The notes beneath the pieces were generated by a model. The model was not told the origin of the DNA. It did no database searches and saw only the letters and a program-made list of their open reading frames with translations. The position numbers and the translations under genes are program-made. From a virus (taxonomy: Duplodnaviria > Caudoviricetes), in the IMG/VR virus record IMGVR_UViG_3300045391_005020: DNA of 64,000 nucleotides. One strand, written 5' to 3'. The first letter of the stretch is position 1; each line of letters begins with the position of its first letter. This document shows positions 5,134 to 39,071 of the stretch, one piece after another.

Positions 5134-6195
5134 TCAGCCCTTGACAAGTCGGGTCTTCTCCTGTCCCAGGAATTCCACTGCGGTTTTGGCGGCACCTAGC
5201 ACGTCGGCAGTGCCGACATAGGGCTTCAGGACCTCGCCGAGCGGCGGATAGACCACGCCGGCGCCGTCCAGGATGGCCGCGATGGCCTTGTCGTCGAACT
5301 CCTTGCCCTCTTCCGGTATCAGCGGATTCAGTCGAGCCAACAGGGAGTCTATCAGGGTAACTTGGGTGACGTTCTGGCCGTCGGTTCCCGGCACCAGCTC
5401 GTTGGAGGCGAAGTGGCGACGCTGGTCGTCGTCGCACAGCTTCATCCGCATGTATTCGATGCATGCGCCGGCCAGCGACTTGATGTCGGCCTTGGCTAGG
5501 TCGATCTGGTTCTTGCCCGAGTTGAGCTCGGGGTTCTGGATCGCCAGCAGCTGCAACCGGTGGTCGAGCTTGGGACATTTGAGCGAGGCGAGCTGGATGG
5601 TGTCTTCGAGACGTTCGCGGTGCTCCTTGATCGCCTCGTCGGTCTCGGCCTTCAGGAAGGCCTCGAACTCTTCGGTAATATCCTGCATGGCCTCGATCAT
5701 GTTGTCTCGCTCATGATCGGTCAGGCGGGCCGGGTTCTTCTCGTCGTCGACAATATCCTTGTCTGCCTTCTTCTGGACCTTGAAGGCGCCCACGAACGGG
5801 ATGACCTTCACGATCGCAAATTCGTGCATCCAGATGAACTTCGAACCCTCACTGGGGTAGAAGCCCTGGCCGTCGTCGTCGCCGATCGGCTGGTATAGGC
5901 GGTTGCCGAACCGGCAGTAGAACTTGCCCTTCTCGGCCACGAAACCGGTCTGTTCCCAGAAGTACTGGCCTTCTTCCTTCTGGGGCGGACGTGACATCAG
6001 GATCGCGTTCCCCATGGACTTGAGCGCTTCGTTGAGCTTCTCGAGCCAGTTGATCAGTACCACGCGTCGCTCAGCTGCCGCTTTGATCTCGGCTTCCTTG
6101 GCCGCGTCGGCCGCGGAGGGTGCCTGGGCGATCTCGACCAATGCCGGCGGAACCTCGACAGGGGTCACGGGCTGGGGCTGAGCTTCTTCAGTCAT
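5134..6195 (-). CDS. hypothetical protein (353 aa, helical)
   Basis: Long ORF with AAGGA RBS, own promoter motif and terminator. Confidence 0.8.
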   Translation of the reverse strand: MTEEAQPQPVTPVEVPPALVEIAQAPSAADAAKEAEIKAAAERRVVLINWLEKLNEALKSMGNAILMSRPPQKEEGQYFWEQTGFVAEKGKFYCRFGNRLYQPIGDDDGQGFYPSEGSKFIWMHEFAIVKVIPFVGAFKVQKKADKDIVDDEKNPARLTDHERDNMIEAMQDITEEFEAFLKAETDEAIKEHRERLEDTIQLASLKCPKLDHRLQLLAIQNPELNSGKNQIDLAKADIKSLAGACIEYMRMKLCDDDQRRHFASNELVPGTDGQNVTQVTLIDSLLARLNPLIPEEGKEFDDKAIAAILDGAGVVYPPLGEVLKPYVGTADVLGAAKTAVEFLGQEKTRLVKG

Positions 6196-6246
6196 AAGTG
6201 TCCTTGGGGGAAGTTGTGCCCCCAAGGATCACGATTTTTACCAGTA

Positions 6247-6266
6247 GTCAAGTCTATTGTCTTGAT
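6247..6266 (-). promoter_or_regulatory. ACAAT-N4-TTGAC promoter motif copy
   Basis: ATCAAGACAATAGACTTGAC. Confidence 0.65.
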
Positions 6267-6286
6267 CTTACCTACGTAGGGAACCC

Positions 6287-6607
6287 CTAGACGGGCGGGT
6301 TCGGGGCGATGTAGTTGGGGTCGAGGTTCGACGGGTCGGCCAGAAATACGTCCAGGTCCTCGATCGTGAAGTCCTCGAGGTGTCCTTCGTGGTCGCACTC
6401 GTAGCACCGAGCGTAGCTCCTATCGCCCCATTCGACGTCACCGTAGCTGTCGGTGCCGTCGTCGCTGACGTCCATTAGACAGGTGGACTCGATCAGGAGT
6501 CGGCGACGGTTCCCGCATTTTGGGCAGGCCTTGTCGGTCAGGCAGTTGTCGTTCCGCTTGATCTTCTCGACCGGCCCAAATTTCTGGACGAACTCTTCCG
6601 GGGTCAC
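6287..6607 (-). CDS. zinc-ribbon protein
   Basis: CPKC ... CYEC pairs; GTG start overlapping upstream stop. Confidence 0.65.
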   Translation of the reverse strand: MTPEEFVQKFGPVEKIKRNDNCLTDKACPKCGNRRRLLIESTCLMDVSDDGTDSYGDVEWGDRSYARCYECDHEGHLEDFTIEDLDVFLADPSNLDPNYIAPNPPV

Positions 6608-38344: not shown

Positions 38345-38410
38345 TCAATTCGGACCCATCAATCCGTGGTGGGTCGGCCATGTGCATCCACAAGGCCAGT
38401 TAGGTTATAA

Positions 38411-38438
38411 GCGGGCCAGGAGTCGCCTCCTGGCCCGC
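38411..38438 (-). terminator. terminator closing the Ubl cassette
   Basis: GCGGGCCAGGAG-N4-CTCCTGGCCCGC. Confidence 0.65.
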
Positions 38439-38469
38439 AGACACGTTCAGCGGCAAACGCCGCTGTCAG

Positions 38470-38988
38470 TTAGTTACCCTTGATCTTGCGGACCAAGTGG
38501 ACGCTGTCGTTGTTCGACAGGATGTGGTCGAGACCGACCACGCGACCGCCGGAGCGGATCTCGAGGCCCGAGATGTCGCCCAAGCCGGCGGTGTCGATGG
38601 CGCAGCGCACGCTGCGGTCGCCGTTCAGGGTGATCTCGGTGATGACGCCCGGGAGCTTGCCGATGCGAACGCGAATGAAGTCGTCGTTCTCTTCGTCGCC
38701 CGCGTCGTCGTCGAGGTCATCGTCGCCGTAGGTGTCGTCGTCGCCGTCGACATCGTCGCTGTAGTCGGGGGCGTTGCCCTTGATCTTGCGGAGCAGGAGC
38801 ACGGTCTGGCCGTCGCTCAAGGTGGTGTCGAGAGTGGCGTCGGCGCCGCTGACGCGGATCTGGTAGCCGTCGGCCACGAGGCCCGCGAGCTCCAGCGCCT
38901 TGCGGACGCTGCGATCGTTAACGAGTCCGACGTCCTGCATCGCGCCGCCGGGAGCAATGCCAACCTTAACAGTGATGGTGACTTCCAT
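38470..38988 (-). CDS. tandem ubiquitin-like (beta-grasp) protein, two units each ending RKIKGN
   Basis: Internal duplication (DRSVR.A...AGL...IR..G.....D..L...D/Q.V.L.RKIKGN) joined by an acidic linker; ThiS/MoaD/Ubl-like pattern; strong RBS. Confidence 0.8.
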   Translation of the reverse strand: MEVTITVKVGIAPGGAMQDVGLVNDRSVRKALELAGLVADGYQIRVSGADATLDTTLSDGQTVLLLRKIKGNAPDYSDDVDGDDDTYGDDDLDDDAGDEENDDFIRVRIGKLPGVITEITLNGDRSVRCAIDTAGLGDISGLEIRSGGRVVGLDHILSNNDSVHLVRKIKGN

Positions 38989-39071
38989 GGTATATACCTT
39001 TCAGGGGTAGTGAGAATTCAAGTGGTGAAACGAATCAGTGATGAACACAGGGAAACTGGGAAACAGAGAAA

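Follow-up and report, generated by a model that had tools for sequence, protein, structure and literature searches.

A phage gene built like polyubiquitin in a candidate ubiquitin-like conjugation cassette

Results

A tandem ubiquitin-like gene and its expression signals

Our analysis of the window (the whole 64,000-nt stretch of viral DNA) centres on a minus-strand gene, P0001 (38470..38988, ATG start, stop codon included), which encodes a 172-aa protein of two tandem ubiquitin-like (Ubl) beta-grasp units. Unit 1 (residues 1-72; 38773..38988, minus) ends LLRKIKGN, its K70-G71-N72 tail (38773..38781, minus, reading AAGGGCAAC) being the proposed internal processing and activation site. It is followed by a linker of 31 aa (residues 73-103; 38680..38772, minus), which contains 18 Asp/Glu and no Lys or Arg and is predicted to be disordered, and then by unit 2 (residues 104-172; 38473..38679, minus), which ends LVRKIKGN, with the K170-G171-N172 tail (38473..38481, minus, reading AAGGGTAAC) directly in front of the TAA stop. 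The translation bears out a preliminary description of this DNA, which had pointed to two Ubl units with the same RKIKGN ending (residues 67-72 and 167-172) separated by about 30 acidic residues. The gene's own ribosome-binding site, also part of that description, was found as a Shine-Dalgarno-like GAAAGG 8 nt 5' of the ATG (38997..39002, minus), within an AU-rich leader of 83 nt. This 83-nt spacer between the E1 gene and the poly-Ubl gene folds no better than shuffled sequences (z +1.95) and appears unstructured. Immediately 3' of the stop lie three stable hairpins (38375..38465, minus; minimum free energy -57.6 kcal/mol, z -7.3), one of them a 12-bp GC hairpin at 38411-38438, which likely mark the end of the operon; a scan for consensus terminators 3' of the gene returned no site because the hairpins lack a T-run.

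The two units share 31 identities over 73 aligned columns, the last six (RKIKGN) included. The DNA encoding the two tails differs solely in the third base of the Gly codon, CGCAAGATCAAGGG(C/T)AAC; since these codons are the preferred ones in a 60% GC genome, identity at the DNA level says little. Homologues confirm the frame, the start and the unit borders of P0001 (MEVTITVKVG aligned to MDFITVKVG), and soil and groundwater metagenome contigs from several studies cover the gene almost identically. A search of related metagenomic contigs for changes in linker length found none, and the extra read depth seen over 38680-38790 stems from low-complexity look-alikes. The phage itself is uncultured, its DNA having been seen in soil and groundwater metagenomes.

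An AlphaFold2 model of P0001, built from a 67-sequence alignment, shows two confident beta-grasp domains with pLDDT above 90 (90-98 for unit 1 and 89-97 for unit 2), each with the order strand-strand-helix-strand-strand, joined by a linker of low confidence (pLDDT 56-61). The top Foldseek matches in the PDB are linear di-ubiquitin, Naegleria polyubiquitin and ISG15 (E 2e-7 to 1e-5). At the level of sequence, P0001 does not reach the gathering score of the Pfam Ubiquitin family PF00240 and matches just TGS below threshold (16.4 bits, cut-off 22.2); searches against Pfam, NCBIfam, PHROGs and PADLOC assigned the Ubl to no family. The unit gives only sub-threshold traces of TGS, ThiS and Ub-RnfH, and by a unit profile its nearest solved sequence relative is SAMP2 (E 0.01).

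Three putative enzyme genes precede the Ubl gene

Of four genes on one strand, the poly-Ubl gene comes last, preceded by those for an E2-fold protein, a JAMM peptidase and a minimal E1, in that order. The E1, P0007 (39072..39764, minus; 230 aa), is a minimal ThiF-family adenylating enzyme with a GxGxxG motif and Cys175, and it matches Pfam ThiF PF00899 at 5.4e-18 (65.5 bits, cut-off 28.1). Residues G26, G28, G31, D50, R137 and C175 are invariant in the E1 alignment, and the best PDB sequence match is MccB, over the nucleotide-binding region only (residues 16-85). Relatives at 29-33% identity occur in Xanthomonas and Erwinia jumbo phages, Flavobacterium FpV-type phages and Bacteroides phages, where GenBank annotates them as 'thiamine biosynthesis protein'; in the 4-5 kb to each side of those E1 genes, neither the unit profile nor the E2 profile picked up a Ubl or E2-fold gene.

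Two genes upstream of the poly-Ubl gene lies P0008 (39773..40888, minus; 371 aa), a JAMM/JAB metallopeptidase with the motif E56, H119-S-H121-x7-S129-x2-D132, of which E56, H119, H121, S129 and D132 are invariant in 6/6 orthologues. It has no Pfam match and a weak PADLOC match to JAB (0.005); that aside, PHROG and PADLOC searches of the cassette genes gave nothing beyond generic E1 matches.

The first gene, P0009 (40858..42801, minus), encodes a large protein of 647 aa with no family match in Pfam, NCBIfam, PHROG or PADLOC. Its C-terminal domain (about residues 455-600) is predicted to adopt an E2/UBC fold. An orthologue alignment of the last ~170 residues shows P-H-x7-C-x-G-N ... N-x-x-D to be invariant, including P521, H522 and C530, and we take the P521-H522-x7-C530 spacing to be the same as that of P-N-x7-C in HPN-type E2s. 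The AlphaFold2 model of the domain (pLDDT 86.5, pTM 0.79) retrieves almost exclusively E2 enzymes among its top 50 Foldseek matches (E about 0.01, TM 0.43-0.48), and mostly E2 enzymes with VIA-align (Z up to 7.5 over 117-126 residues), which that tool rates as middling. These middling scores for the E2 fold count against the conjugation cassette proposed below.

The cassette recurs in phages and in metagenome-assembled genomes

The window appears to belong to a large phage. Nearly all of its long ORFs are on one strand, it has a cluster of seven tRNAs, and the longest contig in the cluster record of P0001 is 214,858 bp. Pfam places replication and repair genes beside the poly-Ubl gene: a family-A DNA polymerase that also has a UDG domain, a primase, a superfamily-2 helicase and two ATPases, one DnaB/KaiC-like and the other SbcC-like.

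The same gene order was confirmed by pairwise checks in a phage-like locus with a three-unit Ubl (L001) and in a 300-kb one with four units ending RGG (L009), and it is also seen in two IMG/VR loci, one with two units ending KGG (L003) and one with a single unit ending KGG-R (L004). We gathered related loci with the E1 alignment, which yielded 152 viral contigs, from which 80 IMG/VR loci were kept, and 74 loci in GTDB metagenome-assembled genomes (MAGs). JAB, E1 and E2-like genes occur together in 71/80 IMG/VR loci and are joined by a recognisable Ubl in 56/80; two E2-fold paralogues are present in 28 of the 80. The three enzymes are together in 60/74 MAG loci and all four genes in 39/74. The MAG loci, some of them on megabase contigs, are mostly labelled Obscuribacterales/Melainabacteria, Saccharibacteria or other Patescibacteria, and their Ubl is a single tailed unit, usually (K/R)-G-N-stop. 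Multi-unit Ubl genes were found only in the viral set, which is to be read as a hint since the viral and MAG loci were collected in different ways.

Relatives carry one to four tailed units

A word-indexed search found five relatives of P0001 (34-46% identity) with two or three units each, all ending KGN/KGA. Run against 1.84 billion cluster representatives, a unit profile of 70 positions matched 1598 of them at E up to 1e-3 and 545 at 1e-10. Among the best 151 of these 1598, two domains were matched in 101, three in 30, four in 6 and one in 14; nearly every complete unit ends (K/R)-G-(N/A/G), and the junctions between units in the multi-unit members usually measure 0-4 residues. In a minority of the same 151, the second domain is degenerate and has no tail.

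Within this range, one class of two-unit proteins (151-178 aa) has units that are strongly diverged and of unequal length, both ending KGN, while both units of L062 end KGS and L002 has two adjacent genes of two units each. In some relatives, two KGN-ended units are followed by an unrelated C-terminal domain of ~140 aa and a coiled coil, a fusion from which conjugation would need endoproteolytic release, as in the ubiquitin-ribosomal protein fusions. Searches of the phage records in GenBank were negative: neither P0001 nor the consensus-like relative P0020 gave a tblastn match in 50,697 records, and megablast of the 10-kb region around the gene gave none either, so that no cultured phage with such a Ubl is at hand.

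The tail of every unit appears to be under selection

The Gly of the tail is invariant in 304/304 profile-complete units. A few viral members carry Ser or Ala in its place (KSN, KSA, KAG), which calls for caution on a strict Gly rule. In many multi-unit relatives, moreover, the units are near-identical, and tail identity in these proves nothing, as it could reflect recent duplication or gene conversion; such an origin of the repeated tails is a point against a polyubiquitin-type reading.

We compared 82 within-protein unit pairs whose bodies are <60% identical with control between-protein pairs matched for divergence. The variable residues ahead of K-G-N (profile columns 64-67) were 77-91% identical within proteins compared with 22-50% between them. 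The tail Gly was identical in all pairs compared, and the residue after it, mostly Asn, was identical in 99% of pairs within proteins and 85% between. The tail on every unit thus tracks its own protein, and presumably the cognate enzymes too, a co-variation in diverged pairs that would be unexpected were only the last unit used. The preliminary description had taken the repeated hexapeptide as a sign of selection on both sites; this now finds backing in the within-protein co-variation, and the repeat in P0001 is more than chance, as a tail on every unit is a family-wide signature of the homologues. Its call for a check on the internal motif was followed up as well: two-, three- and four-unit relatives keep the tail of the last unit at their internal junctions.

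The acidic linker, a probable lineage-specific spacer

By manual reading of the best 151 of the 1598 profile matches, about a dozen multi-unit representatives have linkers of at least 8 residues; few of these linkers are acidic, that of P0056 being the clearest case. The acidic linker of P0001 is most likely a lineage-specific flexible spacer. A conserved DNA-mimic function for it was considered and rejected, the linker being missing in most relatives and non-acidic in several that have one. Of the interpretation offered in the preliminary description, then, the part that saw a precursor of two modifiers has gained comparative support, and the part in which a polyacidic, DNA-mimic tail would displace tagged proteins has found none, since most relatives have no linker; the nearest ones (45-46% identity) are among those without.

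Discussion

A proposed polyubiquitin-type precursor

We propose, with a probability only slightly better than even (roughly 0.55), that P0001 is the modifier gene of a phage Ubl conjugation cassette, built like a polyubiquitin gene, whose product would be cut and conjugated. By architecture, as opposed to sequence family, the gene is polyubiquitin-type: judged from its translation and its predicted fold, two complete units are joined head to tail and both carry the same tail. The proposal rests on the one to four head-to-tail units with a common tail found in relatives (the best 151 of 1598 profile matches included), on the co-variation of tails within proteins even where the units are strongly diverged, on the conserved neighbourhood of JAB, E1 and E2-like genes with invariant catalytic residues, and on the fit of the folds to di-ubiquitin, polyubiquitin and ISG15 for the Ubl and to E2 enzymes for P0009. 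The relatives in which tailed units precede an unrelated domain add to it, and an experimental precedent exists in the cutting of BilA by the JAB enzyme BilC.

The observations comprise the gene and its two-domain fold, the conservation of tails and gene neighbourhood, and catalytic motifs that are intact; the cleavage and transfer steps that follow, the position of the cut and the targets are inferred. One polypeptide would supply two complete beta-grasp modifiers. The JAMM peptidase would cut at both K-G-N tails, more probably between Gly and Asn, yielding unit 1 (residues 1-71) and unit 2 (residues 72-171, with the linker at its N-terminus) and removing Asn172. The E1 would then adenylate each freed C-terminal Gly, probably holding the Ubl as a thioester on Cys175, and the Ubl would be handed on to Cys530 of the E2-fold protein and joined to lysines of phage or host proteins; the same peptidase could undo the linkage.

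A cut after Gly rather than after Asn is the more likely by analogy with BilC, which cuts BilA exactly between Gly and the next residue and accepts a linear Ubl-GFP fusion as a substrate too (PMC10557695). In Type II Bil systems, the Gly of BilA is universally conserved and followed by up to nine residues, and in the crystallised Bil complex the single residue that follows it blocks ATP binding (PMC10557695). Release by Asn-driven self-cleavage through an intein-like succinimide was set aside: KGA, KGG and KGS tails would be incapable of it, and the JAB gene is always present.

Other readings of the repeated tail

P0001 could instead be an uncut two-domain modifier in the manner of ISG15, FAT10 or the Bil/Bub Ubl2/Ubl3 proteins, with trimming and conjugation confined to the C-terminal tail and the internal KGN left as a duplication relic or a structural element. 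ISG15 is among the best structural matches of P0001, and bacterial Ubls with two or three beta-grasp domains are known to act whole, some as dimers or filaments (PMC11601603), so that the multi-beta-grasp Ubls of Bil and Bub speak against cutting here. Their N-terminal domains are not, on the other hand, reported to have a conjugation-type tail, whereas every unit here has one, co-varying within the protein despite diverged bodies. Further points against it are the variation from one to four units among relatives and the adjacent pair of two-unit genes in L002, and a disordered linker of 31 aa speaks against a fixed two-domain body; we consider this reading rather unlikely.

Even with both units released, they might mature with the residue that follows Gly (Asn here; Ala, Gly or Ser in relatives) as their last, the peptidase cutting after Asn72, Asn172 staying untrimmed and the E1 activating a C-terminal Asn. 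The tail L-V-K-K-I-K-G-N aligns throughout with L-V-L-R-L-R-G-G of ubiquitin, which puts Asn in the place of Gly76, and KGG/RGG-type relatives often stop at the second Gly (P0084, L090). Conservation points the same way: the residue after Gly, at 85% pairwise identity, is better kept than a blocking residue needs to be, and it is where most single-unit proteins stop, which is unexpected if it does nothing but block and so counts against the precursor reading in its Gly-ended form. MccB, the best PDB sequence match of the E1 over residues 16-85, belongs to the E1 family and has a C-terminal Asn as its substrate; the match, however, carries no information on specificity. Gly is also invariant where the next position varies (N, A, G, S), the JAMM enzymes and E1s characterised to date take Gly at the scissile or activated position, and in BilA the lone post-Gly residue that blocks ATP binding gets removed (PMC10557695). 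We regard this alternative as improbable, and as about equally improbable the specific proposition that Asn, standing where ubiquitin has Gly76, is the last residue of the mature modifiers, which are released after it and activated on it. Were it true, one phage gene would yield two different Asn-ended tags, and the Asn adenylate could cyclise to a succinimide, as the one formed with MccB does in microcin C7 maturation, a chemistry new to ubiquitin-like tagging. A quite different suggestion, that the units carry sulfur in the manner of ThiS/MoaD, the E1 making on them a C-terminal thiocarboxylate for phage-directed thiolation of tRNA, DNA or a cofactor with no protein conjugation, would account for the weak sub-threshold unit matches to ThiS, TGS, SAMP2 and Ub-RnfH, for the minimal ThiF-type E1 with its GenBank phage relatives named after thiamine biosynthesis, and for the presence of a tRNA cluster. 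It is hard to reconcile with the sole conserved partners over ~130 loci, which are the JAB and E2-fold proteins, one or two in number, whose Cys is invariant, and with Pfam matches of the surrounding genes to replication and repair only, with no ThiG, MoaE, CysM, rhodanese, desulfurase or TtuA-type match; we also know of no multi-copy or fused arrangements of sulfur carriers, and we hold this suggestion to be very improbable.

Comparison with known systems

Eukaryotic polyubiquitin genes (yeast UBI4, human UBB/UBC) likewise consist of head-to-tail beta-grasp units with basic-Gly tails and an extra residue after the last unit. Together with the ubiquitin-ribosomal protein fusions, they show a variable unit number and mono, poly and fused gene forms, as the family described here does, and their precursor is cut by a deubiquitinase-type peptidase, the same being expected here. 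The units described here, however, fall outside the ubiquitin sequence family (nearest are SAMP2 and ThiS), may diverge strongly, end in K-G-N rather than R-G-G and are in some members separated by linkers, and the gene belongs to viruses or bacteria, where genes for a minimal E1 and a JAMM peptidase lie beside it.

Among bacterial systems, BilABCD has separate Ubl, E2, JAB and E1 genes, as here, and its JAB, much as we propose for this cassette, matures the Ubl by taking off the residue(s) behind the conserved Gly and can cut linear fusions (PMC10557695). The two differ in E1 architecture and E2 motif: in Bil, the E1 combines an inactive and an active adenylation domain in tandem with a mobile Cys domain, and the E2 carries a CEHH motif (PMC10557695), whereas the E1 here is a single ThiF domain of 230 aa and the E2-fold domain, with P-H-x7-C(-x-G-N), ends proteins of 350-1300 aa. 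Cutting of the multi-domain Bil Ubls into units is not known, and Bil is a host defence while the cassette lies in a phage replication module. Bub systems, which are class 6E of Iyer, Burroughs and Aravind (2006), have operons with one to three tandem Ubl domains. Their JAB and E1 are usually fused, an E2-like/RWD-like domain may be fused to the Ubl, and a Ubl of three domains assembles whole into Ca-dependent dimers and filaments (PMC11601603); we know of no description of a conjugation tail repeated on every unit.

Class 6d, or PRTRC (TIGR03734-03741), resembles the cassette in its small stand-alone Ubl with a conserved C-terminal Gly, its E2-like, JAB and E1 proteins and its presence on mobile elements. 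It differs in that its E2-like protein lacks a His at the canonical place and its JAB has an extra N-terminal domain; with the NCBIfam PRTRC models, the E1 scored just 42.1 bits to TIGR03736 PRTRC_ThiF (cut-off 144.75) and nothing else matched, and no NCBIfam model matched the Ubl, JAB or E2-fold proteins. The archaeal SAMP/UbaA/HvJAMM1 and Caldiarchaeum-type Ub systems are of interest since SAMP2 is the closest solved sequence relative of the unit (E 0.01). Archaeal JAMM enzymes are reported to cut SAMP conjugates, and Rpn11 to process a pro-ubiquitin. The NCBIfam UbaA model gave the E1 41 bits (cut-off 450). Sampylation uses no E2, and a tandem SAMP precursor in which the tail recurs is not known to us. 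ThiS/MoaD systems are marked by a sulfur-acceptor or donor enzyme and the lack of an E2, and the conserved neighbours here are JAB and E2-fold proteins.

Implications

Head-to-tail ubiquitin precursors are usually regarded as eukaryotic, and our literature search, which covered the journals in part, found no phage-encoded cassette of this kind and no prokaryotic precursor with a repeated tail. A large family of viral and bacterial Ubl cassettes shows the architecture of a polyubiquitin gene, its members being mono, poly, mixed or fused. Should the units indeed be released and conjugated, phages would own a protein-tagging system with a dosage-amplified tag, and bacterial ubiquitin-like machinery has hitherto been studied mainly as an anti-phage defence. 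The same condition would make this a compact and tractable minimal pathway (an E1 of 230 aa, a JAMM peptidase and tags of 70 aa) with accessible basic biochemistry. Moreover, with a K-G tail, trypsin digestion would leave just one Gly on each target lysine, which would make target discovery by mass spectrometry straightforward.

Arrangement of Ubl units in related genes

In 11 related loci (L044, L046, L048, L049, L050, L054, L056, L057, L059, L061 and L062), genes at about 5700–6330 of each locus encode a two-unit Ubl protein of 151–178 aa, in which the sequences of unit 1 and unit 2 are strongly diverged from one another and the second beta-grasp unit is about 88 aa long. Both units end in KGN, except in L062, where KGS is found on both. 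Every one of these loci encodes two E2-fold paralogues, which suggests that there is one E2 per tag.

Another relative, L002 (98–1079), has two neighbouring Ubl genes of 140 aa, each containing two units, and all four units spread over the two genes end in KKIKGN, much as in a small polyubiquitin gene family. When protein cluster representatives were searched with the 70-position unit profile, the giant protein P0134 (2827 aa) gave 18 partial matches, and it may therefore be an array of beta-grasp-like repeats.

Units are also found fused to other domains. In the proteins of alignment A7 (P0076, P0106, P0108, P0111, P0114 and others), two units, each ending in MKMIKGN, precede an unrelated domain, an extension of about 140 aa that has a coiled coil at its C-terminus and is not recognised by Pfam; the whole is reminiscent of a fusion between ubiquitin and a carrier protein. 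In a variant seen at L011 (6001–6690), and also in the Saccharibacteria MAG loci L096, L099 and L115, the first unit ends in KGN while the second beta-grasp domain is degenerate, lacks the tail and is followed by a long extension that is either Pro/Ala-rich or coiled-coil.

Distribution of the cassette and of E1-linked modules

The cassette is also carried by megabase contigs (0.8–6.7 Mb; L106, L115, L118 and L126) from Obscuribacterales and Saccharibacteria MAGs, and is therefore not confined to phages, though these may be prophage copies. Among named phages, the cultured jumbo phages Xanthomonas phage PhiXhv-12 (L005, 2316–5690) and Erwinia phage Ep032 encode a Cys-rich protein of 893 aa, which has a stretch, H-P-H ... 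C-L-G, that resembles the E2-fold motif and is directly followed by an E1 with 33% identity to that of the window; profiles found neither JAB nor Ubl within 5 kb. In Flavobacterium phage FpV4 (L006, 2695–4627), a JAMM protein gene (HIHSH...SGTD) overlaps the start of the E1 gene. The E1 is annotated as a 'thiamine biosynthesis protein', and the pair probably represents a related tagging module under a wrong name.

Flanks and stop codon of the window's Ubl gene

Three stable hairpins (38375–38465; z −7.3) follow the stop codon of the minus-strand Ubl gene (38470–38988), and the leader 5' of the gene is unstructured, a combination that would fit a gene that stands last in its operon and is strongly expressed. 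At position 38471, a T>C change in a groundwater contig converts the Ubl stop codon from TAA to TGA, leaving the end of the protein the same.
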